A stretch of 64,000 nt of DNA from contig JBOGEV010000281.1 of NCBI GenBank assembly GCA_050742015.1, forward strand, positions 6,141-70,140. The letters run 5' to 3'. The DNA comes from Acidimicrobiia bacterium (lineage in GTDB: Bacteria; Actinomycetota; Acidimicrobiia; Spongiisociales; ZC4RG35). Shown here piece after piece: positions 34,336-61,193 of the stretch. A program made the position numbers and the translations under genes. Position 1 is the stretch's first letter. The number at the start of each line of letters is the position of its first letter. Below the pieces are notes generated by a model. That model ran no database searches, was not told where the DNA came from, and was given only the letters and a program-made list of their open reading frames with translations.

Positions 34336-34347
34336 GCAAACGATTGT
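34336..34347. promoter_or_regulatory. LacI-type operator candidate GCAAACGATTGT
   Basis: Palindromic half-sites around a central CG, in the divergent gap between the 34275 (-) and 34432 (+) gene starts. One of 8 related sites. Confidence 0.55.
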
Positions 34348-34431
34348 ATTCTCCCGTCGCCTGCCTTCCACTGTCAAGCCGACCTGATCGCCCCCCGGGG
34401 TGAAGGCCCCGGAAATGCCAGGTCGGTACCA

Positions 34432-35475
34432 TTGCCAGACCTCGTGTCACCGCGAACCACGCTCAAGGATGTCGCCCGCGAAGCGGGAGTGCACGTTTCC
34501 ACCGCGTCGCGCGCTCTCAACCCGAGGACGGCATCCGTGGTCAACGCCGAGACCGTGGAACGGGTGACGGCGGTGGCCCGGCGGCTGGATTACCGACCGC
34601 ATCCCCTGGCTCGGGGGCTGCGCACCAACCGGACGATGTCGGTGGGGATGGCGATCCCGGACGTCGAGAACCCGCTGTTCGGCCCGATCATCGCCGGCGC
34701 CGAATCGGTGCTGGCCGCGCACAGCTACTCGGTGCTGATCGGCAACGCAGACCAGGGCGAGTTAGATGCCGAAGAGGTCGTATCCAATCTCCTCGAGCAC
34801 CACGTGGACGGCCTCCTCCTGGCCACGGCCACGCGCAGCGATGACTGGATCGCCGAGATGGTGGCCGGCGGCGTGGCGGTGGTCCTGGTCAACAGGTCGT
34901 CGGACGACGGAGTGGTACCCGCGATAGTGGGCGACGATCATGCCGGTATCGGTCTCGCCGTCCGTCATCTGGCAGACCTGGGTCACCAGCACATCGGTCA
35001 TATCGCCGGGCCTTCACAACTGTCCACCGGCCTGCAGCGACAACAGGCGTTCTCTTCCTGGGTGCAGCTCCTCGACCTCGACCCGCAGCCGGAGAAGGTC
35101 GAAGAGGCCACCTGGTTCCAGGTCGAACCGGGATACAAGGCTGCCCTCGACCTTCTCAGTCGCCGCCCCGACATCACGGCCATCGTCGCCGCCAACGATC
35201 TCATCGCCCTGGGTTGCTACCGGGCAGTTCGTTCCCTGGGACTCGAGGTGCCCGGGGACGTATCGGTGACCGGGTACAACGACATCCCTCTCCTCGATCT
35301 CATGCAGCCCGCGGTGACGTCCGTCCGTGTCCCCTATCGTCAGATGGGGACCCAGGGGGCTTCTGCTCTGATTGCCCGGATGCAGGGCGACAGCGACGAG
35401 GCTCCGGCTTCGATCAAGCTGACCCCGACCCTTATGATCCGATCCTCGACGGCGCCACCCCGCACCCTGCGCTGA
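34432..35475 (+). CDS. LacI family transcriptional regulator (LacI-1)
   Basis: ORF of 347 aa. HTH: TLKDVAREAGVHVSTASRALN. The rest is a periplasmic-binding-protein-like sugar-binding fold. GTG 34444 is an alternative start. Confidence 0.9.
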   Translation: MPDLVSPRTTLKDVAREAGVHVSTASRALNPRTASVVNAETVERVTAVARRLDYRPHPLARGLRTNRTMSVGMAIPDVENPLFGPIIAGAESVLAAHSYSVLIGNADQGELDAEEVVSNLLEHHVDGLLLATATRSDDWIAEMVAGGVAVVLVNRSSDDGVVPAIVGDDHAGIGLAVRHLADLGHQHIGHIAGPSQLSTGLQRQQAFSSWVQLLDLDPQPEKVEEATWFQVEPGYKAALDLLSRRPDITAIVAANDLIALGCYRAVRSLGLEVPGDVSVTGYNDIPLLDLMQPAVTSVRVPYRQMGTQGASALIARMQGDSDEAPASIKLTPTLMIRSSTAPPRTLR

Positions 35476-35519
35476 TCCGGGCGGATATCGTCGGCAGCAC
35501 CGATCACGAAGGAGTTGAG

Positions 35520-36428
35520 ATGACGCTCGAGACCGACCAAGTGACCATCACCGAGCCGGTGCCGGGCTCGGAGATCCCGGTCCAGCTCATGTACGTCGAG
35601 ACCTGGGACGGCCTCTACGCCCCTATCGGCCTCAGGATGCCGCCCGGGGACGGGCCCCACCCGCTGGTGCTGCTCGCTTCGGGGAACGGCGGGGGTGGCA
35701 TGCCCTGGATTCGGAAGGCCGTGGCCGAGCGCGGATACATCATGGAACGTCTCCTCGCAGCGGGCTATGCCTGTGCCTGGATTCGCTACCGGAGCGAAGT
35801 CGAGCTGGGCTACGACCTGGGCGGCCCCCTGGTCCGGGACATACGCCAGGGGCGGGACCTGTTCAATCGCTCCCCACTCGAGTACGAGGACGAGATAGCC
35901 GTCATCGATTTTCTGAAGACCCGACCCGAGATCGACCCCGATCGGTTGGGTCTGATCGGGATGAGCCACGGCGGCGAGATGGTCCTCAAGATCACCTCGG
36001 ACTACGACGGCGCTGCCGTGGCCGTGGCAAGCGAACCGGCCTCTCATGAGTTCCTCGCCTTGACGCCGGACGACACCGCTTTCGTCGACCCCGATACCGG
36101 CCTGCGCAACATCGAGGAGATGCAGATGACCGGGACGGAGAAGGTGCGGGCTCGCATAGACCAGACGAAGGCGATGGAGCGGATCGGATCGATCAACACC
36201 CCCATCCTGGTCATGGGTCGAGAGGACGACCACCTGCAGGGCATCTTTCGCACCACGTATGAATTGTTGGCCGAGGCGGGCAAGGACGTGGAATGGGTCT
36301 CATGGGACCATCCGCTGCATGGCTACATCTACCCGGAGCGAGGGGCGGACGGGGACTATCAAGTCGACGACGTCCAGGATGCCGCCATCGACGGAATCAT
36401 CGAGTACCTGGACCGCCATCTGAAGTAG
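35520..36428 (+). CDS. Alpha/beta hydrolase (dienelactone hydrolase / S9 prolyl-oligopeptidase-like)
   Basis: ORF 35214..36428. I placed the start at ATG 35520, after GAAGGAG. It has the nucleophile elbow GMSHGG and the late motifs ...DDHLQ and ...HPLHGY. Confidence 0.75.
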   Translation: MTLETDQVTITEPVPGSEIPVQLMYVETWDGLYAPIGLRMPPGDGPHPLVLLASGNGGGGMPWIRKAVAERGYIMERLLAAGYACAWIRYRSEVELGYDLGGPLVRDIRQGRDLFNRSPLEYEDEIAVIDFLKTRPEIDPDRLGLIGMSHGGEMVLKITSDYDGAAVAVASEPASHEFLALTPDDTAFVDPDTGLRNIEEMQMTGTEKVRARIDQTKAMERIGSINTPILVMGREDDHLQGIFRTTYELLAEAGKDVEWVSWDHPLHGYIYPERGADGDYQVDDVQDAAIDGIIEYLDRHLK

Positions 36429-38694
36429 ACGCTGCAGCTTGGAGGGCGGCCCACACCGTGGCTGGGCGCAGGGGCATGTCGAGGTGACTCACACCGTGGG
36501 GGGCGAGGGCATCGAGGACCGCGTTGACGATGGCCGGCGGAGCGCCGATACAACCTGCCTCCCCGGTGCCCTTGGCCCCGAGCGGATTCGACGGGGCCGG
36601 GTGCACCAGTCGGCCGGTGGCGATCGGAGGGATGTCCCCGGCCCGGGGCAACTCATAGTCCATGAGGGTCGCGGTGCGAAGCTGACCGTCGTCCGAGTAC
36701 TCGATTTTCTCGTACAACGCCTGTCCGATCCCCTGGACCAGCGAGCCGTGGATCTGTCCCTCCACCAACATCGGGTTGAGGACATTTCCGCAATCGTCGA
36801 CAGCCACCAGCTTTCGGAGCCGAACCTCTCCGGTCTCGAGCTCCACCTCGACGACGGCGGCATGGACGCCGTAGGGAAAGGTCTGTGCCCCGGGGACGTA
36901 CCACTCGTCCGCTGCCAGATCGACCCCGCTCTCCCGGGCAGCGGCGGCGACCTCGGGCCAGGTGAGCCCCGAATCTGGAACTCCGGCGACGGAGAACACG
37001 CCGTCTTCGAGGACGATGTCGTGGACCGAGGCCTCGAGAGCCTCGGCCGCCACTTCCAACGCTCGCTCCCTGACCTCATGGGCGGTGCGCCAGATGGCGG
37101 CCGCCCCGATCTGTGTGGAACGACTGGCCGAGGTCCCGGTCCCGCGCTCGACTAGGTCGGTGTCGCCCGCGACGAAGACGATGTCGGCGATGGGCACAGC
37201 CAGTGCCTCCGCCGCCACCTGGGCCCACACCGTCTCGTGACCCTGTCCCGCCGAGGTGGAACCGGTTCGAACCGTGACCCGTCCTTCCGCGTCGACCTCC
37301 ACCCGCCCGTACTCACCGGTGTCCACCCCGCCCCCGGCCCGCTCGATGAAAGCGCCGAAGCCGACTCCGATCGGGTTCCCGCTCGCAGCCAGTCGCTCCT
37401 GCTGCTCGGCGCGCACCTCATCCACCCCGACCAGTTCGACAGCCAGACGCAGCGCCGACGCATAGTCGCCCGAGTCGTAGAGGGCCCCGGTGGGAGTGCG
37501 GAATGGAAAGACGTCCGAAGGTATGAAGTTGGCCAGTCGTACCTGATTCGATTCGAGTCCGGCTGCCCGGGCATAGGCATCGATCGCCCGTTCCAGCCCG
37601 TATGCCGCCTCGGGTCGCCCGGCGCCGCGGTAGGAGCCGGTCGGGGCCCGATTGCTCACCACCGACGTGCTGGTGACCCAGAGATCGGCGATGTCATAGG
37701 GACCGGTGGCGAGATAGCGGGAGAACGAAGGGACGGCAGTCCCGTTGTGGGGGTAGGCCCCGACGTTGGCGACGATGTGGACCTCGGCCCGCTCGATCCG
37801 CCCGTCGGCCCGGCCGGCAAGCCGGACCCGATGGGTCGAGCCCCTCCCATGGGTACCACCGCTCATGTGCTCCCGACGACGTTCCACCCAGATGATCGGT
37901 CTGTCCAGCTCGAGGGCCAGGGCAGCCACCACCGTGTGCTCGGGATAGGTCATACCCTTCATCCCGAAGGCACCCCCGACGTCGGGCACGACCACTCTCA
38001 ACTTGCCTTGGTCGATATCGAGCAGCCGGGTCAGCTTGGCCCTCAGCTCGTGCGGCCGCTGATGGCCGATGTGAACGGTGAGACGGCCGTCGTCGCCGGG
38101 CTCGGCCAGGATCGCAAGAGGCTCGATGGCAGTCGGGGCCAGCCGCTGGTTCTCGACCTCGACCTCCACCGAGACCTCGTGCTCGGCCATGTCCAACGGG
38201 TCGCCGAGTTCCCATCTCTCCACGACATTGGTGCCTGCCATCTCGTGGATGACTGTCGTCCCGTCCAGAGCGTCCTCGGCATCGATCACTACCGGCAGAG
38301 GCTCGTATTCGACCCAAACGCGCTCCGCGGCATCGGCCGCCAACTCCACCGAATCGGCGAGCACCACGGCGATCGGCTCGCCCATGTAACGGACCCGGTC
38401 GACAGCCAGATGCGGACGGGGGAAGTCGGGCGCCTTCACCGCAATGCCGTCGCCTGGTATGTCGGGAAGACCCAGGTCGGCGCCGGTGAAGACACCGACC
38501 ACCCCGGGCGATTCCCTTGCCTCGGAGACATCGATGCCGCCGATGTAGGCGTGAGCCTCGATGCTGCGGACGAACACCGCATGCAGCGCGTCCTCTGGGG
38601 CGAGGTCGGCAACGTACCGCCCTGTGCCGGTCACAAATCGGCGATCCTCCACCCGATGGCGGGACTGCGGCGGGAACGGTTCCAGGTCGGTCAT
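36397..38694 (-). CDS. Xanthine dehydrogenase/aldehyde oxidase family molybdopterin-binding large subunit (CoxL form-II-like)
   Basis: ORF of 765 aa. It has RVEDRRFVTGTGRYVADL, the GSYRGAGRPEA motif and GAKGTGEAGCIGAPPAI. Its 3' end overlaps the convergent hydrolase gene by 32 nt. Confidence 0.9.
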   Translation of the reverse strand: MTDLEPFPPQSRHRVEDRRFVTGTGRYVADLAPEDALHAVFVRSIEAHAYIGGIDVSEARESPGVVGVFTGADLGLPDIPGDGIAVKAPDFPRPHLAVDRVRYMGEPIAVVLADSVELAADAAERVWVEYEPLPVVIDAEDALDGTTVIHEMAGTNVVERWELGDPLDMAEHEVSVEVEVENQRLAPTAIEPLAILAEPGDDGRLTVHIGHQRPHELRAKLTRLLDIDQGKLRVVVPDVGGAFGMKGMTYPEHTVVAALALELDRPIIWVERRREHMSGGTHGRGSTHRVRLAGRADGRIERAEVHIVANVGAYPHNGTAVPSFSRYLATGPYDIADLWVTSTSVVSNRAPTGSYRGAGRPEAAYGLERAIDAYARAAGLESNQVRLANFIPSDVFPFRTPTGALYDSGDYASALRLAVELVGVDEVRAEQQERLAASGNPIGVGFGAFIERAGGGVDTGEYGRVEVDAEGRVTVRTGSTSAGQGHETVWAQVAAEALAVPIADIVFVAGDTDLVERGTGTSASRSTQIGAAAIWRTAHEVRERALEVAAEALEASVHDIVLEDGVFSVAGVPDSGLTWPEVAAAARESGVDLAADEWYVPGAQTFPYGVHAAVVEVELETGEVRLRKLVAVDDCGNVLNPMLVEGQIHGSLVQGIGQALYEKIEYSDDGQLRTATLMDYELPRAGDIPPIATGRLVHPAPSNPLGAKGTGEAGCIGAPPAIVNAVLDALAPHGVSHLDMPLRPATVWAALQAAASTSDGGPGTR

Positions 38695-38740: not shown

Positions 38741-38752
38741 GCAAACGATTGC
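38741..38752. promoter_or_regulatory. LacI-type operator candidate GCAAACGATTGC
   Basis: Lies in the 78-bp divergent gap between the Mo-hydroxylase gene (start 38694, -) and the operon starting at 38773 (+). Confidence 0.6.
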
Positions 38753-38772: not shown

Positions 38773-39759
38773 GTGGACACACGGCAGTCACGGCCCACTC
38801 TGGCGGTCCTCGGCACCCGCTTCGACGACTTCGAAGTCGAGCGTCGGGTGATCGGGGATGTCGACATCGTGTCCGGTCCGGGCCGGGACCAGGCCGAAGT
38901 GCTGCAGATCGCCTCCGGCTGCGATGTGATCCTGGCCGGGGCCGTCCCGATATTCGACACCATCACCCTCGAGCAGCTCGGTTGCCGGGGGATCGTCCGC
39001 CTCGGCGTCGGGGTGGAGACCATCGACCTCGACGCTGCGGAGCGGCTAGGGATGTGGGTGTGTCACGTCCCGGACTACGGAACGGAAGCGGTGGCCATCC
39101 ATACCGTGAGCCTGGTCCTCGCCTCGATACGACGGATCCCTATGTCGGACCGCCGCATTCGCACCGCCACCTGGGGATTGGGCGGGCTCCGTCCGCTCCA
39201 TCTCCCGGGAAGCCTGACGGTGGGTTTGGTCGGGTATGGCCGCATCGGCCGAAGGGTGGGGCAACTGCTGAGCGGCCTCGGCTTCGGCCCGATCCTGGTC
39301 GCCGACCCATTTCTCGGCCCCGAGGCCGACCTGGAGCCGGGTTGTGAGCTGGTTGGGCTCGAGCCGCTTCTGGCCGCCTCCGATATTGTCTCCCTGCACA
39401 CCCCGCCTGCCGGCGACGGGCCTTTGATCGGAGCCGCACAGTTGTCGCTGATGAAACCCGGCGCCGTCCTGATCAACACCGCCCGGGGGGCCCTGGTCGA
39501 CACCGGTGCACTCATCGACGCCCTGGCCGGCGGCGCCCCTGCGGTGGCGGCACTCGATGTCTTCCAACCCGAGCCACCCGACATGGCCGTCTTCGAAACG
39601 GTTTCCGATTCGGTGATCCTGACCCCGCACATGGCCTGGTACACCGAGGAGTCCGAGCTCGAGCTGCGGCAGAAGGGAGCAGCGGAGGCGAAGCGGATCA
39701 TCGAAGGCAGCACCCCTCTCCATCCGGTCGCCTCCCCCCGCCTGGAGCCGACCCGGTGA
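38773..39759 (+). CDS. D-isomer-specific 2-hydroxyacid dehydrogenase family protein
   Basis: ORF of 328 aa, GTG start. It has GLVGYGRIGRRVG (NAD binding), INTARGALVD and TPHMAWYT. Confidence 0.85.
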   Translation: MDTRQSRPTLAVLGTRFDDFEVERRVIGDVDIVSGPGRDQAEVLQIASGCDVILAGAVPIFDTITLEQLGCRGIVRLGVGVETIDLDAAERLGMWVCHVPDYGTEAVAIHTVSLVLASIRRIPMSDRRIRTATWGLGGLRPLHLPGSLTVGLVGYGRIGRRVGQLLSGLGFGPILVADPFLGPEADLEPGCELVGLEPLLAASDIVSLHTPPAGDGPLIGAAQLSLMKPGAVLINTARGALVDTGALIDALAGGAPAVAALDVFQPEPPDMAVFETVSDSVILTPHMAWYTEESELELRQKGAAEAKRIIEGSTPLHPVASPRLEPTR

Positions 39760-40514
39760 GCCGATCCATCTCCGACCTCACCGCCCCCGATGTCGCCGAG
39801 ATGATCTCTGAACGCGGGGTTGTGGTGATGCCTTTCGGGAGCATCGAGCAACACGGGCCCCATCTGCCATGCGGGACCGACATCATGGCCGCAGACCTGG
39901 TCACCATGGCCCTGGCCGACCGGCTGGCCGCCCTGATCGCGCCGGCCGGCCCTTACGGGGTCACACCCATCCACGCCGGGCACCCGGGAACGATCTCCCT
40001 GTCACGGGAGGTCTTCGAGGCATACGTGTCCAATGTGTGCGACGAGCTGGTCGGGCAGGGAGTGCGGGCCTTTGTGTTCGTCAACTGGCACGAGGGCAAC
40101 ATCGCCTCCCTCGATGCCGTCGCCACCGACGTCCAGAATCGCCATGGCGTGGTCGTGATCACCGCTCAGGCCTGTTACACCGCCCAACGGATCTATGCCG
40201 ACAAGGGCGGGGAATTGACCCATGGCGGAGGGATCGAGACACTCGCCGTGCTCGCCTCCGACCCGTCCCTGGCCCGCCTCGACCGGGTGACCGAGCCGAC
40301 CCGCCCCGAAGGGGCCGATGAGCTCGACGCCATGCGGCGATCGCGCGAGGTGTATGGCTACATCACCGATGTCACCGAGATCGCCGACGACGGCTGGTAC
40401 GGCAACCCCGGTTGGGCGAGCCAGGAGGAGGCAGACACTTTCGCCGAGCTTGTCGCCCAAGAGATCGAATATGCCGTCGAATCGATCCTGGCCATACGAA
40501 GGAGGGAACCTTGA
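39756..40514 (+). CDS. Creatininase-family amidohydrolase (paralogue 1)
   Basis: ORF of 252 aa. It has PFGSIEQHGPHLPCGTD and FVNWHEGN. It overlaps the upstream gene by 4 nt. Confidence 0.85.
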   Translation: MSRSISDLTAPDVAEMISERGVVVMPFGSIEQHGPHLPCGTDIMAADLVTMALADRLAALIAPAGPYGVTPIHAGHPGTISLSREVFEAYVSNVCDELVGQGVRAFVFVNWHEGNIASLDAVATDVQNRHGVVVITAQACYTAQRIYADKGGELTHGGGIETLAVLASDPSLARLDRVTEPTRPEGADELDAMRRSREVYGYITDVTEIADDGWYGNPGWASQEEADTFAELVAQEIEYAVESILAIRRREP

Positions 40515-40900
40515 CCGTGGTCCACGGTGATGAAATCGTCTATCAGGACCGTCCCACCCGACGTTCCGCCGACCCGTTCGCGGCGCCGGGACCGGGCGCA
40601 GCCAGCGCCCGTCAGGTGTTGCTGGACTACGTCCCGCGGCGGACCGCCCATATCCACCCTCACAGCGAGGAGGTCTACTACGTGATCCGGGGACACGGCG
40701 AGATTTGGGTCGATGGGGCGCGGCATCGGGTCCAAGCCGGAACGTGGGTTCGAATCCCGGCCCGGGCTCCACACGCCACCATGGCGGCCCCCGGTGAGCA
40801 GATGGAGCTCATCTGCTTTTTCCCTCACCCCGACCTCGAGGAGAACATCGAAGAACTGGACCTCGCCCTCGACGCACCTGGGGAGACCGAAGATGAATGA
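40511..40900 (+). CDS. Cupin domain protein
   Basis: ORF 40412..40900. I placed the start at TTG 40511, after GGAGGGA. It has HIHPHSEEVYYVIRGHGEIWVDG....IPARAPH cupin motifs. Confidence 0.75.
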   Translation: MTVVHGDEIVYQDRPTRRSADPFAAPGPGAASARQVLLDYVPRRTAHIHPHSEEVYYVIRGHGEIWVDGARHRVQAGTWVRIPARAPHATMAAPGEQMELICFFPHPDLEENIEELDLALDAPGETEDE

Positions 40901-41951
40901 TGTCGTCCGTTTGGCACCTATCGGGCTCGGTCGCTGGGCCCGGGTCCTTGCCCGCGGCGCCGGTCGGGGCACGCTCATCGAGCTGACGAGCTGCTTCTCC
41001 AGGTCCGCCGACTCCCGATCGGCCTTCCAGGAGGAATTCGGCATTGCCAGGTCGGCGAGCTCTCTCGACGAACTGCTCGCCGACCCCGAGATCGAAGGCG
41101 TCCTGGTCACGACCCCGAACGACACCCACAAGCAGGTGATCCTCGAGTGCCTGGACGCAGGTAAGGCGGTGTACACCGACAAGCCGATCGCCCACACGAT
41201 GGAGGATGCCGGAGAGATTGCCCGGGCCGCTGCCACGGCCGGGGTCCCCTTCGCCGTGGGTCACAGCGCACGGCGTCTCGGGGGTCATCGCGCAATGAGG
41301 GCTTGGCTCGACGAGGGGCGGATCGGCTCGGTGTCACTGGCAGAGGCCAATTTCTCCAACGAGAGGGGTCTCGAGCTCACCACCGACACCTGGAGGTTCT
41401 TCGCCGACAAGAGCCCGGGAGGGGCGCTGATCCAACTCGGCGTCCACCATGCCGACAATCTCCAGTACCTGCTCGGCCCGGTGGCCTCGGTCACCAGCCA
41501 TGCCCGCAAGCTCTACACCAACGCCGAGGTACCGGATGCGATCATGTCGATCCTCGAGTTCGAGTCCGGCCCGCTGGGCTACCTGGGCACGGGTTGGGCT
41601 TCGCCCGGGGTCTATCAGCTTCGTCTCCAGGGCACCGAGGCCAACCTGTTCTACGACCTGGACTTCAACAACTGGGACCAATCCCATCTGGTCGACGCGA
41701 AGAGCAGCCTGGTCAGCCAGGCCTACCGGCAGTCGGTGAGATCCCCGGTGGAGATCCCGAAGACTGACATGTTCCGGGAGCAGCTCGACGAGTTCGCACG
41801 TGCCATCAGGGGCCAGGATGAGATCGAAGTGGGGGCCGAAGAAGCGATACGAGCCCTGGCCGTGGTCCACGCCGCCCTCGAGTCGTCACGCCGCGGGGGT
41901 GCCGCCGTCGAACTGGCGCCGATGCTCGAAATGGCCGGGGCGCTCGGATGA
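40893..41951 (+). CDS. Gfo/Idh/MocA family oxidoreductase
   Basis: ORF 40713..41951; the start is ATG 40893 (MNDVVRLAPIGLGRWA). It has VLVTTPNDTHKQV and VYTDKPIA. Confidence 0.85.
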   Translation: MNDVVRLAPIGLGRWARVLARGAGRGTLIELTSCFSRSADSRSAFQEEFGIARSASSLDELLADPEIEGVLVTTPNDTHKQVILECLDAGKAVYTDKPIAHTMEDAGEIARAAATAGVPFAVGHSARRLGGHRAMRAWLDEGRIGSVSLAEANFSNERGLELTTDTWRFFADKSPGGALIQLGVHHADNLQYLLGPVASVTSHARKLYTNAEVPDAIMSILEFESGPLGYLGTGWASPGVYQLRLQGTEANLFYDLDFNNWDQSHLVDAKSSLVSQAYRQSVRSPVEIPKTDMFREQLDEFARAIRGQDEIEVGAEEAIRALAVVHAALESSRRGGAAVELAPMLEMAGALG

Positions 41952-44820: not shown

Positions 44821-44833
44821 GAAAGGACCTGAC

Positions 44834-46423: not shown

Positions 46424-46438
46424 ACGGCTGGGCGGCTT

Positions 46439-51316: not shown

Positions 51317-51328
51317 TCAAACGACTGC
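51317..51328. promoter_or_regulatory. LacI-type operator candidate TCAAACGACTGC (weaker)
   Basis: Lies 14 nt before ATG 51343. It has two deviations from the consensus. Confidence 0.4.
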
Positions 51329-52527: not shown

Positions 52528-53679
52528 TCATCCGATCCGGAGCAACCCCCGTGGGGCGTGATGCAACGATTCGTACCCGTCCTCGGTCACAACGATAAGT
52601 TGGCCGGTTTGGACCCCCGCCTTCTCATCAAGGGTGATGACGTTGGGCTGGACCACGAGAGCCATCCCGGTCTCGAGGGAGAGGTCAGGGATCTCGCGGT
52701 GGGCTCGTGAGGCACTCCCGAGCACGGGCGGCAAATACCCGCCCCCATAACCGTGAACGAGGTCGTCGAAAATGGTGAAGCCCATCTCCTCGATGACCGA
52801 TGAGGCCTCGACCAACTCACGGGCGTGGGCACCGGGCCGGACCACCGAGACGATCGCGTCGAACGCAGCGTCGGCAGCCTGGTGGAGTCGGGCGATGAGC
52901 GGGCTGGGCTCGTCGGCGATGGCGAACGTGCGCAGCACCTGGCCGGCGTAGCCCCAGAAGTTGGCACTGATCTCACAGAACATGACGTCTCCCGGCTCGA
53001 TCATCCTGGTCGACTGGAATTGAGCCGGCACGCAGATCTCGGGAGCCGCCATCGGGGTCGTTGCGAAGTAGTGGATGTGGTTGGTGCCGCCCTCGGCCAG
53101 GTAGGCGTTCTCGACGATGGCGGCCAGGCCACGCTCGTCCATGCCCGGCTGCACCTGGTCGGCGAGGGCGAGCACCGCCCGGTCCGACATGTCGGCAGCC
53201 ACCCGCAGCCTGTCGATCTCCTCGTCCGACTTGACCAGCCGCAACCCGGTGTAGGCGTCGTCGAGGGACACCAATTCCCCGATCGATTCGGCCAGGCGGC
53301 GATAGGCCCGTTGCCCGATCGGGCCAATGATCCCGACACGCTGCCCTTCGCCGAGACGCTCCCGGATCAGTTCGGCCAGGGTCGTCATGGTGGAAGGACC
53401 GCCCCAGCGGACATCGGCCTCGGAGGCGATGAGCCGGGCATTGGGCAGGTGGTTGTAATGCTGGACCAGGAGGACGTCGCGCTCGTCGGGGGTGTGGAGC
53501 AGTGCGGCCTCGGTGGTGACCGGCCACTGGGTGAGCCAGGGCACTCCCGATCCTGATCGCTCGGACCCGTAGACCACGAGATGGTCGACACCGCCCGCGC
53601 CCATGATCTCGAGGATGACCTGGCGGCGTCGACCCATCTCCGCCTCACTGAATCTGGGGTAACCGTCGTTTGTGCTCAT
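52528..53679 (-). CDS. M24-fold creatinase-like protein lacking the acidic metal ligands (paralogue 2)
   Basis: ORF of 383 aa. It reads GDVMFCEISANFWGYAGQVLRT, VHGYGGG, VVQPNV and VQTGQ. It is convergent with paralogue 1. Confidence 0.8.
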   Translation of the reverse strand: MSTNDGYPRFSEAEMGRRRQVILEIMGAGGVDHLVVYGSERSGSGVPWLTQWPVTTEAALLHTPDERDVLLVQHYNHLPNARLIASEADVRWGGPSTMTTLAELIRERLGEGQRVGIIGPIGQRAYRRLAESIGELVSLDDAYTGLRLVKSDEEIDRLRVAADMSDRAVLALADQVQPGMDERGLAAIVENAYLAEGGTNHIHYFATTPMAAPEICVPAQFQSTRMIEPGDVMFCEISANFWGYAGQVLRTFAIADEPSPLIARLHQAADAAFDAIVSVVRPGAHARELVEASSVIEEMGFTIFDDLVHGYGGGYLPPVLGSASRAHREIPDLSLETGMALVVQPNVITLDEKAGVQTGQLIVVTEDGYESLHHAPRGLLRIG

Positions 53680-53692
53680 CCGGGCCGAGCCT

Positions 53693-53704
53693 ACAAACGT
53701 TTGC
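53693..53704. promoter_or_regulatory. LacI-type operator candidate ACAAACGTTTGC
   Basis: The core CAAACGTTTG is a perfect 10-bp palindrome. It lies in the 76-bp divergent gap between 53679 (-) and 53756 (+). Confidence 0.6.
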
Positions 53705-53755: not shown

Positions 53756-54604
53756 TTGGCCCGTTTTGCCGTCAAGACCCCGACCCAGCACACCACATGG
53801 GACAACATGTTGGAGATCTGGACCGCCGCCGACCGGCACGAGGTGTTCGAGTCGGCCTGGAACTTCGATCACTTCTATCCGCTGCGCGGCGACATCACGG
53901 GGCCCTGTCTCGAGGCGTGGGTCACTCTCTCGGCGCTGGCACAGGCAACCAGCCGCATCCGGGTGGGCTCGATGGTGAATGGGATGCACTTTCGTCATCC
54001 GGCCGTGCTGGCATCGATGGCGTCCTCGCTGGACATCGTCTCCGGGGGGAGACTCGAGCTGGGCCTGGGCGCCGGCTGGTACGAGACGGAGACCGAGGCC
54101 TACGGGATGGAACTGGGGACTGTCGGAGAGCGCATGACCCGGTTCGAGGAGGGCACCGAGGTCATCGACCTCCTTCTCACCCAGGAGACGACCGACTTCG
54201 AAGGCAAGTTCTTCACACTGCGCGAGGCGCGCAACGAGCCCAAGCCGCTCCAGGCGCCACGGCCGCCGATTGTCATCGGGGGCCGCGGCCCGAAGCGAAC
54301 CCTGCGGCTCGTCGCCCGTTACGCGTCGATGTGGGATGCGATGTTCGCCGAGGACGAGCCCGAAGAGTGGCTGAGGTTGCGGGACGTGATGATCGGACAC
54401 TGCCACGACGTCGGTCGAGACCCGGCCGAGGTGTCCTGCTCAACTCACCTCAGAGTGGACCCCAACCCGGACCCCGGTCAGGTGGCTGAGCGAAGCGCTC
54501 GCATGTTCGAGCACGGCATCGACGTGGTGATCCTCGGCCTCAACGCGGCCCACGACGGAGCCACGGTGGATGCCCTTGCGGCGGCTCTGGCCGAGGTTGA
54601 CTGA
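53756..54604 (+). CDS. LLM-class (luciferase-like) F420-dependent oxidoreductase
   Basis: ORF of 282 aa. The start is TTG, 6 nt after GGAGG. MARFAVKTPTQHTTWDNMLEIWTAADRHEVFESAWNFDHFYPL is an N-terminus typical of the F420 LLM subfamily (recalled). Confidence 0.8.
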   Translation: MARFAVKTPTQHTTWDNMLEIWTAADRHEVFESAWNFDHFYPLRGDITGPCLEAWVTLSALAQATSRIRVGSMVNGMHFRHPAVLASMASSLDIVSGGRLELGLGAGWYETETEAYGMELGTVGERMTRFEEGTEVIDLLLTQETTDFEGKFFTLREARNEPKPLQAPRPPIVIGGRGPKRTLRLVARYASMWDAMFAEDEPEEWLRLRDVMIGHCHDVGRDPAEVSCSTHLRVDPNPDPGQVAERSARMFEHGIDVVILGLNAAHDGATVDALAAALAEVD

Positions 54605-54692
54605 AACCACCCTGCCTCCTCGATCACGATGCAGACCGGGTGGGAGTCGACACACCTAGCCTCCACTGGGTCGCTGATCCAGGAGGATTTTG

Positions 54693-55226
54693 ATGGAGTT
54701 CGATCCGATTGAAATGCTCGTCGGGGATTTCTCGTGGGCGTTCACGCTGGAGATCGTGTTGCGCACCACGATCATGTACCTGTACACGCTGATGGTGGTC
54801 CGGTTCCTGGGGAAACGAGGCCTCGGTCACCTTTCGCCCTTCGAATTGGTCATCATCGTCGCCCTCGGGTCCGCGGTCGGCGACCCCATGTTCTACGCCG
54901 ACGTCCCGCTGTTCCACGGGATCGTGGTCATCACCGCCGTAGTCGCCCTGCAGCGGTTGCTCCAGGAGATCACTGAACGATCCTCACGGGTGGAGACGCT
55001 GCTCGAGAGCAAGGCGACACGTCTGGTGACGGCTGGTGTCCTCGACGAGAGGGCGCTGGATCAGGAGGAGTTGACCGAGAAGGAGTTGTTCTCCGCACTG
55101 CGGGAGAAAGAGGTGGAAAACCTGGGGCAGGTCAGGTTGGCCTATATCGAGCCTTCCGGAGTGATCACCGTGTTCAAGATGGAGCGGGACCTGTCGAACC
55201 CGGGCCGCTCGGTGCTCCCTGATTGA
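54693..55226 (+). CDS. DUF421 (YetF-like) membrane protein
   Basis: ORF 54690..55226. ATG 54693 lies 6 nt after AGGAGG. It reads LRTTIMYLYTLMVVRFLGKRGLGHLSPFELVIIVALGSAVGD. Confidence 0.75.
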   Translation: MEFDPIEMLVGDFSWAFTLEIVLRTTIMYLYTLMVVRFLGKRGLGHLSPFELVIIVALGSAVGDPMFYADVPLFHGIVVITAVVALQRLLQEITERSSRVETLLESKATRLVTAGVLDERALDQEELTEKELFSALREKEVENLGQVRLAYIEPSGVITVFKMERDLSNPGRSVLPD

Positions 55227-55317: not shown

Positions 55318-55333
55318 CAGCAATCGATTGCTG
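55318..55333. promoter_or_regulatory. Perfect 16-bp palindrome CAGCAATCGATTGCTG, the best LacI-type operator candidate
   Basis: Lies about 92 nt upstream of the Dpp/Opp-type ATPase genes (ATG 55426), in a 199-bp gap. Confidence 0.65.
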
Positions 55334-55425: not shown

Positions 55426-56631
55426 ATGACAACTACGGCAGACACCACCCGGAAACGAGCGACTACTCCCCTCGTCGCATCGGTACGGGACCTCCAGGTC
55501 TATTTCGAGACCAAGGCCGGGGTGGTCCATGCCGTCGACGGCGTCACTTTCGAGATCCGCGACGGTGAGACGCTCGGTTTGGTGGGCGAAACGGGCTGTG
55601 GCAAGAGCGTCACCGCCCGCTCGTTCATCAGGCTCGTGCCGAGTCCACCAGGCATCTATGCAGGCGGGAAGATCGACTTCTGGTCGACCGAGGCGCGCCA
55701 CATCCAGGAAGGTCCGATCGACCTCCTCAAGGTCTCGAAGGAAGAGATGCTGGCCATCCGCGGTGATCGCATCGCCATGATCTTCCAGGACCCGGGCAAG
55801 GCGCTCAACCCGGCGCTGTCCATTCGAAGCCAGATCGCCGAGGTCTTCTACCAGCACAGGTCCCAGGAGATCCTCGAGGTTCTGGGACCGAACGTGCCAC
55901 GGATCCTCCGACGTGCGGCGAGACAGGAGAACAGCGCCGTCGAACGACTCCTGTTGAAGATCCCCCCGCTGCGCGCGAAGGCAGACAAGCTGAGGGAGAG
56001 GGTTGACGACCTCGTCGCCGATGCGCTGACCGAGACCCAGATCGCCAATCCCCGCAAGATAATGGCCAGCTACCCGCACGAGCTGTCCGGTGGAATGAAG
56101 CAGCGGGTTCTCATCGCTCAGGCACTGGCGTGCAACCCGGACCTATTGATCGCTGACGAGCCAACGACGGCACTCGACGTCACCATCCAGGCCAGGATCC
56201 TCGAGCTGATAGCCGAGCTGCAGGCCCGCCTCGAGACATCCGTCCTCTACATAAGCCATGACCTCTCCCTGGTCAAGGAGATATGCGATCGAGTGGCGGT
56301 GATGTATGCGGGGAGGATCGTGGAAACCGGGACGACGAAGCAGATCTTCAGCAACCCACTCCACCCATACACCCGCGGGCTGATGGCCGCTGTCCCGTCG
56401 GCAAATCACCGACGCGGCCAGCTGGCCGCGATCGACGGCACGGTCCCCGAGCTGGTCGACCCTCCGCCGTCGTGCCATTTCCACACCCGCTGCCCGTACG
56501 CGGTCGAAATCTGCCGGACGGTCGATCCACGCATGGTGAGCGACGAAGATGGGCACGCCGTGGCCTGCTTCGCCTACGAGTCCGATGACATGGGCGCCGT
56601 GCTCCCCACTCTCGAGGAACCGGCCCGGTGA
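55426..56631 (+). CDS. ABC transporter ATP-binding protein, DppD/OppD type, with a roughly 50-70 aa insertion
   Basis: ORF of 401 aa. It has [35 protein letters not shown], the oligopeptide C-terminal motif HPYTRGL and CHFHTRCP. An extra segment (...[45 protein letters not shown]...) sits between the Q-loop region and the signature motif. Confidence 0.85.
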
Positions 56632-57986
56632 CGACCTTGAGCACCGAGCACGGAGCCCTGGACACCGCGACGTCGAAACGCGCCGTGATCTCGCTGCGCG
56701 GAGTCGAGAAGCATTTCCCGATCAAGGAAGGCACCCTGCAGCGGGTCTCCGGCCATGTCAGGGCGGTGGACGGCGTGTCGTTCGAGATCCGTCCCGGGGA
56801 GACCGTCGGCCTTGTCGGCGAGTCCGGATGCGGCAAGACGACACTCGGGCGGTGCATCAGCGGACTGGCGCCGCCGACCGGGGGCAAGATCTATTTCAGA
56901 CTGTCGGACGACGACGCCGGCAGGCTCGATGCGATCGAGGCCACGCCTGAAAGCGATCGAACCAAGGAGCAGCTGAAGGAAGTCGACAGGATCGACACCC
57001 ATCATCGCATCGATCAGCTCTCAGGTAAGGCGTGGCGTTCCTTTCGTCGGAACTGCCAGATCGTGTTCCAGGACTCGTTCAGCTCGCTCAACCCGAGACA
57101 GCTGGTCAAGGACGCCGTGGGTCGCCCGCTCCGGGTGTGGAAAGAGGCGTCGGGCACGGACCTGACCGAACGGGTCGTGTCATTGTTGGAGAGCGTCGGC
57201 CTCGGCCGCCAACACCTGTACCGGTACCCACACCAGTTCTCCGGCGGGCAGAGACAGCGAATTTCGATCGCGCGGGCCTTGGCCCTCGACCCCGAGTTCA
57301 TCGTGCTCGACGAGCCGACGAGTGCCCTCGACGTCTCCGTCCAGGCGCAGATCCTCAACCTGCTCCACGATCTCCAGAGGGAGCGAGGTCTCACCTACCT
57401 CTTCATCAGCCATGACCTCGGGGTGGTGAGGTTGATGAGCGATCGCATCGCCGTCATGTACCTGGGCAAGGTCGCCGAGCAGGGCACGGCCATGGAGCTG
57501 TTCGAGGATCCGCGTCACCCCTACACCGAGGCGCTGTTGGCCGCCAATCCCGACATCAAATCCGAGACCTCCGAGATGAGAGGGTTGCGCGGAACCCTGC
57601 CCGACCCGGCCAACCCACCCGAGGGGTGCCGGTTCCATACCCGCTGTCCGGTGGCCACTCCGGTCTGCGGATGGGAGATCGACGACGCGGTGGCATGGCT
57701 GCAGACCAAGGACTTGCTGCTGGGCGGTCTCGCCGACGTGCAACGCAGGTCCAGCTTCGACGCCACTCTCGTGTTCCACGACGAGGCGGCGGCGGCCGCC
57801 GCCGGCGACGCGATCCAGAACGGCGACGTCCCCCCTTCGATGAGGGCTGCCCTCGAGATGTTCTCGACAGAGGGCGGGAAGATGAGCATGAAGTTCTCGC
57901 CGGTCGAGCCGGTGGCGCTGGAGGACATCGGCGATGGACACCTCACCGCCTGCCTGCTCCACAACTCCCAGCGGGACCGTCTCTGA
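56628..57986 (+). CDS. ABC transporter ATP-binding protein, DppF/OppF type, with internal and C-terminal insertions
   Basis: ORF of 452 aa. It has [41 protein letters not shown] and CRFHTRCP. About 90 extra residues precede the final HLTACLL. Confidence 0.85.
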
Positions 57987-58008: not shown

Positions 58009-58749
58009 TCAGCTCAGCGCCGAGAGGACCAGCCGCACCGCGGCGAAACCGAGCAGACCGAGGACCACGTACTCGAAGGCCTTCTGGTCGAGACGTCTCC
58101 CCAGCCTGATTCCGAGGAAAGTCACTATGGCCACGGGCACGATGGCCCACAGTGCCTGTGTCGTCCGTTCCGGCGTGAACGACCCGAGAAAGACCAGAGT
58201 CGCCAGTTGGATCAGCCCGAAGATCTGGAACGTGATGGTCATCATGAAGACCAAAGAGGATCGGTTCATCCGGAGACTGTGTAGATAGGTGGCGATGAGC
58301 GGACCCGCGGTTCCGGTTGCCCCCAACAGCCCGCCCCCGACCAGACCCATCGGAGCGGCGATGCGACGGGCGGTATCGTGCCGAAGCCCGAATTGCGGGT
58401 TGGCCAGGTAGCGCCAGATGTACCCGACGATCACGACGGCGATGACCACCGAGAGGATCCGGTCATCCAGCTCGGTGAGGAGCCAGGTACCTGCGATGGT
58501 GGCGACAGTCCCCACGGTCAGGAACGGGATCAACACGAAACCGGTGCCTCGGGCCCCCGACTGGTGCTCCCAGAGCAGCCACCCGTTCGACGCCATGTTC
58601 GCCAGCGAGAGAACGACGACCGCGTGCTCGACACTGGTGACGCTGGCGATGACAGGTACGGCGAGCAGCGGGCCGCCCATCCCGGCCACACCCTTGACCA
58701 GATAGGCGACCGCGATCGCCAGGAGGATGATCCCGAATTCGCCCGTCAT
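58009..58749 (-). CDS. TauE/SafE family sulfite/anion exporter
   Basis: ORF of 246 aa with 7-8 TM segments and GVAGMGGPLLAVPV- and GTAGPLI-type motifs. Confidence 0.8.
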   Translation of the reverse strand: MTGEFGIILLAIAVAYLVKGVAGMGGPLLAVPVIASVTSVEHAVVVLSLANMASNGWLLWEHQSGARGTGFVLIPFLTVGTVATIAGTWLLTELDDRILSVVIAVVIVGYIWRYLANPQFGLRHDTARRIAAPMGLVGGGLLGATGTAGPLIATYLHSLRMNRSSLVFMMTITFQIFGLIQLATLVFLGSFTPERTTQALWAIVPVAIVTFLGIRLGRRLDQKAFEYVVLGLLGFAAVRLVLSALS

Positions 58750-58795
58750 CGGGGCGACGCGACAGGTGAAAGGTGCGGAGTCGTGGCCGCCAGAC

Positions 58796-59272
58796 CTACT
58801 CCGAGCCCGTCGTCAGGTCCGGCGGGTTGAGCCCGAGGGCGCGGAGCATGCCCAACTCGTCCCCGAAGTACCAGGCCTCGGCGATCAGCCCGTCCTCGAT
58901 ACGCCACAGTCCGACCTCGACCACGTCGACGTGACGACCGGTCGCCGGTATGCCGTACAGCGACCCGGTATGGGTGCCGACGACCCGGAAGATCCCCCAG
59001 ACCTTGTCATTCTTCGCCGTCAACTCGAGGAGGATGTTCTGACGGTCGTTCATCGAATTGTCGTCCATCCCACCGGGCCCGTCGTGCTCCCAGAGGTCCC
59101 CGATGTGGGTGAACCCGGCGCGATGACGTTTGAAGTTCGGCGCCATGAAGGGTCGTCGCTCCGAGACCTTCGCCACCCGATATGCCGCCACCACGGCCAG
59201 GGCCTCGGCCTCTTGATCGGTGCAGGTGCATTCCTTGGAGCCGAACAGGGAGATGTGGGGGTGCTCGACCAT
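58796..59272 (-). CDS. SnoaL-like / predicted ester cyclase
   Basis: ORF of 158 aa. GTHTGSLYGIPATGRHVDVVEVGLWRIEDGLIAEAWYFGDELGMLRALG is typical of the ester-cyclase (NTF2-like) family. Confidence 0.7.
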   Translation of the reverse strand: MVEHPHISLFGSKECTCTDQEAEALAVVAAYRVAKVSERRPFMAPNFKRHRAGFTHIGDLWEHDGPGGMDDNSMNDRQNILLELTAKNDKVWGIFRVVGTHTGSLYGIPATGRHVDVVEVGLWRIEDGLIAEAWYFGDELGMLRALGLNPPDLTTGSE

Positions 59273-59276
59273 GGAT

Positions 59277-60329
59277 TCAGAGCTCGACGATAGGTCGGAC
59301 GGCGATACGTGATTCGAGAGCGGCCAGGGCCTCTCCGACGGAGTCGAGCGGATACACGTGGGTGACGAGAGGGCTCAAGTCGACCTTGCCCGAGCGCATG
59401 AGAGCGATCATGGCCGGATAGGCATTGGGACTGGACCTGATTCCCATCACGTCGACTTCGTCGAGGGTGAGCAGGTCGATGTCGATCGGGGAGAGCTTGC
59501 CCCCGGTCAGGCCGAGCAGCGCCACCCTGCCGCCCCGGCGGACCGCACCGATGGCCTGGGCCGGGACGTCGGGATTACCCGTACAGTCGAGCACATAGTC
59601 GACTCCCCGCCCCCTGGTGCGGGACCGAACCCCTTCAACCGGGTCCTCCACCTCATAGTCGACGACTTCGTCACAACCCATCTTCCCCGCCAGGTCGAGT
59701 CTGCTTCCCCGCCCGACCATGATTATCTGCGCCGCGCCGGATGCCGAGGCCACCGCCGCAGCGAGCAGGCCGAGCAGACCCGGGCCGAAGACGGCGACAC
59801 TGGAGCCCGACTGGAACTCGACCCGGCGCAGAGCGTGCACCGTGAGCGATCCCTGATTGACCAGGGCGCCCTCGAGGGGGCTGACCGAGTCGGGCAACTT
59901 GTGGAGCATCTGCGCGGGCCGGACCGCGAACTCGGCCAGGGCCCCAGGTGCGGTGTGCCCGTAGAGCTTGTATCCCGGAGTGCCCGCCTTCTCACACAGG
60001 TTGTAACGGCCGCGACGGCACATCGGGCACCGGCCACACCCGATGTGGTTCTCGGCCACCACCTTGTCGCCGGGCGCCAGTCCCAAGTCGTCGAGACCCT
60101 CGCCGAGGGCGACCACCTCGCCGGACCATTCGTGGCCCATCACGAAGGGCAACGACGGGGGCCAGCCCCGTTTCTCGAAGGCGCCATGGACCATCTTCAG
60201 ATCGGTGCCGCACAAACCGCACGCCCTCACCCGGACCAGCACCTCCCCGGCTGCGGGCTCGGGGACTTCGACCTCCTCGACCGCGAGGTCGTTCCAGCCT
60301 CGCAACACCGCGGCTCGCATCGTGGTCAT
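59277..60329 (-). CDS. Zinc-dependent medium-chain alcohol/polyol dehydrogenase (MDR)
   Basis: ORF of 350 aa. It has CGLCGTDL, GHEWSGEV, GCGRCPMCRRGRYNLCE (structural Zn) and VAVFGPGLLGL. Confidence 0.9.
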   Translation of the reverse strand: MTTMRAAVLRGWNDLAVEEVEVPEPAAGEVLVRVRACGLCGTDLKMVHGAFEKRGWPPSLPFVMGHEWSGEVVALGEGLDDLGLAPGDKVVAENHIGCGRCPMCRRGRYNLCEKAGTPGYKLYGHTAPGALAEFAVRPAQMLHKLPDSVSPLEGALVNQGSLTVHALRRVEFQSGSSVAVFGPGLLGLLAAAVASASGAAQIIMVGRGSRLDLAGKMGCDEVVDYEVEDPVEGVRSRTRGRGVDYVLDCTGNPDVPAQAIGAVRRGGRVALLGLTGGKLSPIDIDLLTLDEVDVMGIRSSPNAYPAMIALMRSGKVDLSPLVTHVYPLDSVGEALAALESRIAVRPIVEL

Positions 60330-61114
60330 CGCTGCGTCCGGTCGCCCGGCTCGGGGGCACGCTCGCCAAGGCTCTTCGAGACATCCTCGACGGCGGCGGC
60401 GATGTGGTCGGCTACCGCGTCGATGATCTCGCGAGCGCGTTCTTCGGTGACCGAATCGGGATTGCCGTACCAGCCGGTGGCGGCCACCTCCCTGAAATCC
60501 CGCATCACCGGGAAGACGTCGCGACGCCGGAACAGGGCATGTCCGTCCATGCCCCGGTCGACCGAGTCACCTTCGACCAGCTCGTCCAGCCTGACCAGAG
60601 AAGGGTCATAGGCGAGGATGGCGGCTGTTTCCATCGACCCGGCATGGGTGAACTCCATCTCATCGGGGAAGAGGCCGCTGGTGATGATGTGGGATTCGGC
60701 CACGATCACACGCAGGGGGAGCTTCGCCTGCACCTGGTCTGCGCCGAGTCGAATCGCGGTCGAATTGCCCTCGTGCCAGTTCACCACGATGACTCTCTCC
60801 ACTCCGGCACTCGAGAGGCTCTCACATACGTCGAGCATCAAGGAGGCCAGAGTGGCGGGGCGAATGGTCAGCGACCCGGGCCAGGGCAGGTGATACGGGG
60901 CCACGCCCACCGGTGACAGCGGGAGAACCGGTGCGTCCAACCGCTCGGCGACCCTGAGGGCGATGGTGAGGGCGGCGAAAGCGTCTGTGCCCAGCGGCAG
61001 ATGGCCGCCGTGTTGCTCGATGCTCCCGGTCACCAGCACGACCGTGCCCCGGCCCAGAGCCGCTTCGGCCTGAGGCTGGGTCATGTTGGCGAGAAGCAAG
61101 TGATCGGCACTCAT
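60326..61114 (-). CDS. Creatininase-family amidohydrolase (paralogue 2)
   Basis: ORF of 262 aa. It has TGSIEQHGGHLPLGTD and VVNWHEGN. It overlaps the ADH start by 4 nt. Confidence 0.85.
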   Translation of the reverse strand: MSADHLLLANMTQPQAEAALGRGTVVLVTGSIEQHGGHLPLGTDAFAALTIALRVAERLDAPVLPLSPVGVAPYHLPWPGSLTIRPATLASLMLDVCESLSSAGVERVIVVNWHEGNSTAIRLGADQVQAKLPLRVIVAESHIITSGLFPDEMEFTHAGSMETAAILAYDPSLVRLDELVEGDSVDRGMDGHALFRRRDVFPVMRDFREVAATGWYGNPDSVTEERAREIIDAVADHIAAAVEDVSKSLGERAPEPGDRTQR

Positions 61115-61181
61115 TCACCGGTCTCCAGTCCTGAGCGGCATGTTCGCGGCGAACATTCGAATCCCGCGGAAAAGCTGGCGC

Positions 61182-61193
61182 GCAAACGGTTGT
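61182..61193. promoter_or_regulatory. LacI-type operator candidate GCAAACGGTTGT
   Basis: Lies about 67 nt upstream of the creatininase-2 start (61114, minus strand), in the 118-bp gap after lacI-2. Confidence 0.5.

Follow-up and report, generated by a model that had tools for sequence, protein, structure and literature searches.

In a 64,000-nucleotide (nt) stretch of DNA from an uncultured Acidimicrobiia bacterium (contig JBOGEV010000281.1 of assembly GCA_050742015.1, positions 6,141 to 70,140; hereafter the window), we found a palindrome with a central CG that recurs in the gaps between genes for hydrolases, oxidoreductases and transporters, and its sites are probably the operators of a conserved regulon run by LacI-1, LacI-2 or both, the two LacI/GalR-family repressors encoded among these genes. 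The palindrome has the consensus c-RCAA[W>S]CG[W>S]TTGY-g over 12-16 base pairs (bp), or RCAANCGNTTGY in search-pattern form. A first, sequence-only reading of this DNA had proposed eight such operators as the links of a single regulon of about 30 kilobases (kb). Direct inspection of the window returned all eight sequences, letter for letter, at the positions given; six of them we regard as strong predicted operators and the one at 46439 as probable, whereas the one at 51317 is weak and at background level in this genome. The units share one operator type, and the island is larger than proposed, running about 8 kb past the window end for a total of about 38 kb. That one or both LacI proteins co-regulate these units is supported, as far as sequence can tell, by their full-length LacI/GalR architecture and by the presence of an orthologue of one or the other in every motif-bearing locus except L010 and L013, whose contigs end near the cluster (L numbers designate related loci).

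The palindrome is far more frequent in the window than its composition predicts. At a window G+C of 66.5%, the 10-mer CAAWCGWTTG has five exact matches against 0.12 expected, a count reached in 0 of 100 shuffles. With up to one mismatch allowed, this 10-mer gives eight matches against 2.97 expected, and the three weaker sites do not rise above chance when judged by it alone. More discriminating is the full 12-mer RCAAWCGWTTGY of the earlier reading, which has five exact matches (0.025 expected) and two with one mismatch (46439 and 61182; 0.585 expected over the whole window); its two-mismatch class, with five matches against 9.2 expected, is background and includes 51317 as well as a half-site at 53662. 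Relaxing the two W positions to N left six exact matches in the window, all six of them intergenic.

Position in the window separates the sites from chance just as clearly. On a gene map built from third-position G+C and Pfam, intergenic DNA amounts to 3,547 nt (5.5% of the window), and all seven 12-mer matches with at most one mismatch fall within it, with none in 60 kb of coding DNA. This comparison of intergenic with coding DNA, suggested alongside the original list, favours it; simple multiplication puts the probability of such a placement by chance at 0.055^7, or about 2e-9. The intergenic DNA has a G+C of 65%, and an explanation by AT-rich spacers therefore fails. The left 34 kb of the window contain no match with at most one mismatch. 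The central CG and the two-fold symmetry are found in 8/8 window sites and in 40 of the 41 sites compiled. In a frequency matrix, which is circular in that it was made from pattern-selected sites, information drops off beyond 12-14 nt; the flanks of the eight window sites have nothing in common beyond 12-16 nt, and only some sites are longer than the core, namely the one at 55318, with 16 nt, and one in L016, with 20 nt. RNA-family and tRNA scans returned no Rfam family, riboswitch or tRNA at any of the eight sites. Seven of the eight lie between -140 and -30 of the start of at least one flanking gene, the site at 51317 being placed at -20.5 only.

Five of the six strong predicted operators are exact matches. 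O1 (34336..34347, GCAAACGATTGT) lies in the divergent gap between a HIBADH-like gene and lacI-1, its centre being 66.5 nt away from the start of the former and 90.5 nt from that of the latter, and is the predicted autoregulatory site of lacI-1. O2 (38741..38752, GCAAACGATTGC) occupies the gap between a Mo-hydroxylase gene and an eight-gene operon, centred 52.5 nt and 26.5 nt from the two flanking starts, and has a counterpart in L001, an exact site (9131) in the divergent gap beside a Mo-hydroxylase/cupin unit. O4 (49927..49938, ACAATCGTTTGT), between an LVIVD-Amidohydro_2 pair and an MFS transporter gene, recurs between LVIVD and MFS genes in L008 and L018, and between LVIVD and lacI-2 in L012; L013, considered as another LVIVD/lacI-2 pairing, was rejected, the partial gene after its LVIVD gap not being a LacI. 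O6 (53693..53704, ACAAACGTTTGC), between M24-2 and an F420-type LLM gene, is kept in L008, and in L013 a site with one mismatch separates DHDPS from the M24-2 orthologue. O7 (55318..55333, CAGCAATCGATTGCTG), about 94 nt before two Opp-type ATPase genes, is the perfect 16-bp palindrome that it had been said to be; it is kept in L008, and in L016 its core sits inside a 20-bp perfect palindrome before a contiguous operon of substrate-binding protein (SBP), permease and ATPase genes. O8 (61182..61193, GCAAACGGTTGT), in the lacI-2/creatininase-2 gap, has one mismatch and is counted as strong by conservation, its asymmetric CAACCG variant being the same in six lineages (the window, L008, L012, L016, L017 and L018); position +/-2 therefore tolerates G/C.

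The remaining sites are weaker. O3 (46439..46450, GCAATCGATTTC), with one mismatch and intergenic, lies 37 nt before the second FrsA-like esterase gene and is a probable operator that would act as an internal site toward the end of the eight-gene operon; it is present in L008, yet the flanks are identical there too, so this conservation is uninformative. O5 (51317..51328, TCAAACGACTGC), 14 nt before M24-1 and with two mismatches, is a weak candidate, and what speaks for it is solely the corresponding gap of L008, which holds GCAATCGTTTGG with the exact 10-mer core and diverged flanks. The half-site at 53662-53673, previously described as overlapping the M24-2 start codon, lies in codons 3-6; with two mismatches, a class at background rate, and missing in L008 (a 90% orthologue), it was set aside as chance.

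Both candidate repressors are complete members of the LacI family. The genes lacI-1 (34432..35475, + strand) and lacI-2 (61233..62282, - strand) encode proteins of 347 and 349 amino acids (aa), respectively, which score 48.2 and 53.1 bits against the LacI helix-turn-helix (HTH) model PF00356 (cut-off 27), carry a C-terminal Peripla_BP_1/3/4 effector domain in a full-length Pfam architecture, and align end to end with the RbsR, CcpA, PurR and LacI structures in the PDB (E = 1e-33 to 1e-43). Their overall identity is 40%. The recognition helix VHVSTxSRxLN and the hinge ARxLRT are common to LacI-1, LacI-2 and their orthologues (LacI-1 HTH, TLKDVAREAGVHVSTASRALN; hinges LARGLRT in LacI-1 and IARALRT in LacI-2). 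The nearest solved DNA-binding domain is that of CcpA (48 bits; hinge AVARGLA versus PLARGLR), and the hinge Leu of both proteins, a conserved residue that in this family inserts at the central CpG, aligns with the CcpA hinge. Upon direct comparison, the half-sites of the LacI-1-linked and LacI-2-linked sets were indistinguishable. Predicted sites occur at both regulators, directly upstream of lacI-1, in the lacI-2 operon as seen in L014, and directly upstream of lacI-2 in L012 and L017, and both lacI genes appear, from this placement, to be autoregulated.

Related loci, reached via LacI-1, M24-2 and LacI-2 orthologues, with 10-21 kb visible per relative, carry the same motif in the same kind of place. 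Eight non-redundant loci, together 141 kb, contain 29 matches with at most one mismatch, of which 27 are intergenic and the other two lie 8 nt inside an SBP open reading frame (ORF). Upstream of lacI-1 orthologues with 60-97% identity, GCAAWCGATTGTA is found at about 70-100 nt in 5/5 loci (L001, 74%; L003, 97%; L004, 90%; L005/L006, 60-62%), and at 60% identity the site is kept while the flanks are unrelated. A scan of genome contigs with LacI-1 gave one true relative, L001; L002 (33%) and L007 (28%) were rejected as unrelated, and neither has the motif. An exact site precedes the HIBADH gene in L010. L001 has a motif-like site before an ABC ATPase gene and another, with two mismatches and the core CTATCGTTTG, directly upstream of its alpha/beta hydrolase orthologue. 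The same locus carries, at 9439-10551, a nitrile-hydratase-alpha-like gene after a cupin gene and downstream of an exact operator match, so that the LacI-1 module has variable cargo.

Among the M24-2/LacI-2 orthologue loci (62-90% identity), L008 (90%) shares synteny with the window and retains six sites, with a pre-M24-1 site better than that of the window, and L012, L013, L016, L017 and L018 have rearranged gene orders. In the rearranged loci the motif returns at recurring gaps (LVIVD/MFS or LVIVD/lacI-2, before the SBP operon, DHDPS/DHDPS, before M24 genes, and lacI-2/creatininase), and among the lacI-2 loci, down to 62% identity, it is also found at the LLM and Opp gaps. The expectation that the motif would be conserved upstream of orthologous genes was thus borne out, to 60% identity for lacI-1 loci and to 62% for lacI-2 loci. 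In an unbiased alignment of the lacI-2/creatininase gap (A1; the window, L008, L012, L016 and L018; 65-100% orthologues), the operator is the only invariant block. Upstream of it, about 7-20 nt apart, this alignment conserves a -10-like TAnnnT hexamer (TACGCT, TAACCT, TAGGCT or TAACGT; window 61197-61213, - strand), which suggests an internal promoter for the creatininase operon. TAnnnT boxes beside the other window sites were discounted as too common by chance, the box in A1 being the only noteworthy one. The aligned lacI-1 and lacI-2/creatininase gaps contain no second conserved palindrome. A second operator-like site was also seen 8 nt into the SBP frame, the main SBP operator lying 68-85 nt upstream of it (L014, 6070-6081; L012, 11267-11278; L013, 11283-11294); here the DNA ATCGWTTGC is kept while the encoded residues vary (R/E/K, F/I), which suggests that the DNA itself is under selection.

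The regulon reaches past the end of the window. L014 matches window 51233-64000 at 99.89% identity and extends 8.09 kb further; one strand carries S51, M24 and DHDPS genes there, the opposite strand DHDPS, OCD and an SBP_bac_5-permease-permease-lacI-2 series. This extension adds three to five further sites in the SBP and DHDPS gaps (ACATACGTTTGT and GCAAAGGATTGT in the DHDPS/DHDPS gap; GCAATCGATTGG, plus weaker ones, before the SBP gene). The gene lacI-2 is the last of the SBP-permease-permease-lacI-2 operon, whose upstream part and operators are visible in L014, and the sites before the SBP gene therefore predict that lacI-2 ends an operator-controlled transporter operon. In the window, 12 operator-bearing units comprise about 28 genes; with L014 the totals rise to about 14 units and about 33 genes, a predicted span of about 38 kb. 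A LacI regulon counts as global in size if its targets exceed 15 genes and are spread over 7 operons or more (PMC4052901); the part in the window already reaches this size, and the regulon is unusually large for a clustered one.

How the two repressors divide these operators is less certain. We give about even chances to the reading in which both proteins recognize all operators as an isorepressor pair, because the DNA-reading residues are common to both and the two modules stand side by side here. In other genomes, the LacI-1 partners are the HIBADH-like gene, the Mo-hydroxylase and the alpha/beta hydrolase, and the LacI-2 partners are the creatininase-ADH-SnoaL-TauE string, the Opp system, the M24 genes and the LVIVD-Amidohydro_2 pair; the picture resembles two conserved modules, each with its own LacI paralogue and both under one operator code, more than the single pathway first proposed. 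A possible though less favoured alternative is that two separate local regulons use the same operator type, LacI-1 being confined to the module at 33-47 kb and LacI-2 to that from 47 to about 72 kb, with little cross-talk and perhaps different inducers. Each paralogue does occur with its own module and the motif where the other is not in the visible sequence (LacI-1 in L001; LacI-2 in L012 and L016-L018), and the effector domains of the two have diverged, but these single-paralogue loci are seen over only the short pieces given above, the recognition helices and hinges are identical in both groups, and the half-sites show no difference between the two sets. Moreover, the S15, amine-oxidase and FrsA genes, which belong to the LacI-1-side operon here, adjoin the LacI-2 cluster in L012 and L013.

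It is improbable that the sites belong to a regulator encoded elsewhere, such as a global CcpA-like LacI-family protein, with the local LacIs using other operators. The resemblance of the DNA-binding domain to CcpA, the core AANCGNTT, which is generic for the LacI family, and the global size of the regulon by the criterion of PMC4052901 would fit such a regulator. On the other hand, the motif is restricted to the island within 72 kb and missing from the 34 kb on its left side, lacI-1 or lacI-2 orthologues accompany it across gene contexts, it stands directly upstream of both lacI genes or their operon, and the aligned gaps offer no other conserved palindrome. Recurrence by chance, as an artefact of AT-richer spacers, as a dispersed repeat or as a restriction-modification target is effectively refuted: although two-mismatch sites occur at chance rate and TAnnnT-like boxes near the sites are individually non-significant, the shuffles, the near-equal G+C of intergenic DNA and window, the unrelated flanks of the eight sites and the retention of sites at orthologous gaps despite diverged flanks all speak against it.

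Several observations weigh against the regulon as we read it, or limit its reach. Nothing separates LacI-1 sites from LacI-2 sites, and it is the identical residues only that carry the joint reading. The gap equivalent to that of O3 has no site in L012 and L013, the M24-2 gene of L010, in another gene context, has none either, and O5 is statistically the same as background in this genome; the predicted membership of the regulon is thus variable between loci. Several sites are centred only about 10-27 nt from the nearer start codon, which is unusual unless transcripts are leaderless, and the conserved core of 12-14 bp is below the family-typical 16-22 bp. The circularity of the frequency matrix counts here as well, and the motif distribution covers 72 kb of this genome together with the 10-21 kb pieces of the relatives.

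By analogy with the LacI family, from which binding, repression and effector are all inferred, the predicted regulon would work as follows. LacI dimers would occupy operators overlapping or directly after the promoters of about 14 units and repress them sterically until relieved by an effector. This effector, a transported substrate or an intermediate, would bind the periplasmic-binding-protein-like domain and free the repressors, whereupon the Opp-type ABC importer, the MFS transporter, the hydrolases and the oxidoreductases would be induced together, with both repressor genes themselves under operator control.

Overall, the system is a standard LacI-family catabolic regulon and conventional regulatory biology; unusual are its size, the absence of recognizable carbohydrate enzymes and the single operator code of its two paralogous repressors. 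Ravcheev et al. (2014; PMC4052901) reported an even palindrome with a central CG for 1173 of 1303 LacI-family transcription factors (TFs), autoregulation for 72% of TFs, most sites at -140 to -30 and operator lengths of 16-22 nt, with 69% of LacI-TFs controlling one or two operons and 93% at most 20 genes. The present regulon resembles the local LacI regulons of RegPrecise (PMC4052901), which were reconstructed by comparative genomics, in the type of evidence and in that regulator, transporter and enzyme genes lie together, the regulators appear autoregulated and the promoter gaps hold even palindromes centred on CG. It departs from them in size, with the operator at about 14 units comprising about 33 genes, and in that no carbohydrate enzymes were recognized. 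The gal regulon of Escherichia coli has a comparable pair of paralogous LacI-family repressors, GalR and GalS, with hyphenated-dyad operators with a central CG at several transport and catabolic promoters and at both regulator genes; in the present pair the DNA-reading residues are identical. GalS reportedly reads GalR operators. The GalR consensus is GTGNAANC.GNTTNCAC (PMC5110547). Unlike here, where one island of about 38 kb holds the sites and joint operator reading is inferred, the gal operators are scattered round the chromosome, some paired by looping with HU, and the effector is a sugar, while the gene content here is not carbohydrate-like.

Three further systems invite comparison. The pur box is approximately ACGCAAACGTTTGCGT, an operator core nearly identical to ours, and the enterobacterial PurR aligns with both LacI proteins from end to end. 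Near purR, PMC5110547 lists a site containing GCAAACGTTT; PurR itself, a member of the LacI family, has a ligand other than a sugar and governs many operons (PMC4052901). However, PurR needs a corepressor and controls scattered biosynthetic genes, and its recognition helix, STTTVSH, differs from the HVSTxSR found here, so that the PurR-like operator core is not explained by shared residues; no orthology is implied. CcpA of Firmicutes, the nearest match in its DNA-binding domain and one whose cre operator also has the AANCGNTT core, differs in being a global regulator that needs HPr-Ser-P, has genome-wide sites and is not encoded beside its targets. MocR and MocS, the two repressors of the mannityl-opine (moc) regulon of Agrobacterium Ti plasmids, are LacI-like. 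This regulon is likewise a catabolic island, there for a conjugate compound, of transporters and oxidoreductases under two repressors (PMC6341043), a resemblance that is architectural only.

The gene labels and the site-to-start distances of the sequence-only reading agreed with Pfam and with our measurements, respectively, and its eight-gene operon was right once a small cupin ORF was counted. On the LacI-1 side, the O1 target is the HIBADH-like dehydrogenase gene (33340..34275, -; Pfam NAD_binding_2/NAD_binding_11), whose start was estimated via domain position and orthologue length, and lacI-1 is followed by an alpha/beta hydrolase gene (35520..36428, +; BAAT_C/DLH/S9-like by Pfam, with a GAAGGAG ribosome site). 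O2 would serve the molybdenum hydroxylase large-subunit gene (36397..38694, -; Pfam MoCoBD_1/2, Ald_Xan_dh_C), which reached no NCBIfam equivalog cut-off. This gene stands alone, with no adjoining 2Fe-2S or FAD subunit genes seen in the window or in L001, where the Mo-hydroxylase is also flanked by cupin genes. The eight-gene unit (38773..47621, +; Pfam, NCBIfam) encodes a 2-hydroxyacid dehydrogenase, creatininase-1, a cupin, a GFO/IDH/MocA oxidoreductase, an FrsA-like esterase, a CocE/NonD (S15) hydrolase, an FAD amine oxidase/CrtI-like protein and FrsA-like esterase 2. Its cupin ORF (about 40520-40900, +), between creatininase-1 and the GFO/IDH/MocA gene, is masked by the over-extended longest GFO ORF (from 40713), the true GFO start lying near 40893 (MNDVVRLAPIG...).

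Toward the LacI-2 side, O4 lies between its two predicted targets, the LVIVD beta-propeller and Amidohydro_2 gene pair (47676..49849, -; Pfam; start approximate), kept beside a site in L008, L012, L013 and L018, and the MFS transporter gene (49942..51156, +; Pfam MFS_1), whose start is fixed 3 nt after the operator by the 404-aa L008 orthologue. M24-1 (51343..52500, +; Creatinase_N and Peptidase_M24 by Pfam) scored far under every NCBIfam equivalog cut-off. The predicted targets of O6 are M24-2 (52528..53679, -; Pfam), which has hundreds of orthologues in Acidimicrobiia at about 68% identity, and the genes for an F420-dependent LLM oxidoreductase of the TIGR03560 family (262.7 bits; NCBIfam cut-off 231.4) and a YetF/DUF421 membrane protein (53756..55226, +; Pfam). 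O7 precedes two Opp/Dpp-type ABC ATPase genes (55426..57986, +; Pfam ABC_tran and oligo_HPY), and O8 the creatininase-2, Zn-ADH, SnoaL-like and TauE genes (58009..61114, -; Pfam), a string that follows lacI-2 in L008, L012, L016 and L018 and is divergent to it in L017. Upstream of lacI-2 lie two Opp-type permease genes (62298..64000, -; Pfam BPD_transp_1) in a stretch that continues past the window end. The Opp-type system is split here, the ATPases (55426-57986, +) being convergent with the SBP and permease genes (permeases at 62298-64000, -), the creatininase-ADH-SnoaL-TauE unit separating the two parts, and each part having its own predicted operator; in L016 and L018, the five Opp genes are contiguous behind one operator region.

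The gene content gives a family-level lead on the substrate. An Opp-type importer and an MFS transporter accompany three or four M24 proteins, the S15, S51 and FrsA-like hydrolases, two creatininase-family hydrolases that each adjoin dehydrogenases, and further enzymes (DHDPS-family, OCD, FAD amine oxidase, Mo-hydroxylase and, in relatives, PALP), and the island genes scanned included neither a glycoside hydrolase nor a sugar kinase. This points, at the family level only, to a substrate that is amide- or ester-bonded, amino-acid-derived or of cyclic imino-acid type rather than a carbohydrate. Among NCBIfam subfamily models, only CocE/NonD and the TIGR03560 F420-LLM family were matched above cut-off. 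The creatininases scored 93-102 bits against the cut-off of 235 for TIGR04448, and the M24 proteins matched no creatinase equivalog; EutD/DoeA gave 41-62 bits (cut-offs 575-613), EutC 102 (472), IolN 49-51 (245), IolM 208 (450) and IolG 110 (355), and the island proteins were far under the cut-offs of the PepQ and XdhA models. Given these scores, we rejected filing the island under a creatinine/creatine, ectoine/hydroxyectoine or Thermotoga-type inositol pathway. As a tentative extension, both LacIs might sense a non-carbohydrate effector of the kind just named, which the Opp and MFS transporters would take up. With about 33 genes in about 14 units under their joint control, this regulon would rank among the largest known LacI regulons at a single locus, and the island, widespread among uncultured Acidimicrobiia, would serve the catabolism of a substrate new to this class.

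Acidimicrobiia are abundant in soils and waters and mostly uncultured. To our knowledge, regulation in this class is essentially unstudied, the LacI survey of Ravcheev et al. did not cover it, and no LacI-family catabolic regulon has been described before in this lineage. The analysis yields a concrete operator code, two candidate repressors and a defined set of about 33 genes that recurs in many metagenome-assembled genomes, the orthologue clusters of LacI-2 and M24-2 each numbering well over 100. The gene set provides a ready hypothesis for pathway membership where enzymes fall under functional cut-offs, and the repressors could be used as bait for substrate finding through ligand screening. 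Furthermore, the island illustrates paralogous repressors of GalR/GalS type with common operators in a new phylum-level setting, and it extends the upper size range of clustered LacI regulons.

Some neighbours of the island deserve mention in their own right. Genes for the selenocysteine machinery, SelA and SelB, lie next to each other at 22016-25104 (+); across the window, ARAGORN reported no tRNA-Sec, or any other tRNA. A GRDB-like gene (selenoprotein B family) adjoins the FrsA-like gene of the cluster in L012. Further left, and without the motif, a gene for a 1,340-aa adenylate/guanylate cyclase-AAA-TPR signalling protein (4756-8778, +) precedes one for a protein of 2,687 aa that combines RTX calcium-binding repeats with a PKD domain (8843-16906, +), also motif-free. 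Near the cyclase gene, window 16910-19087 (-) encodes a sulfate-permease-family transporter fused to STAS and cyclic-nucleotide-binding domains.

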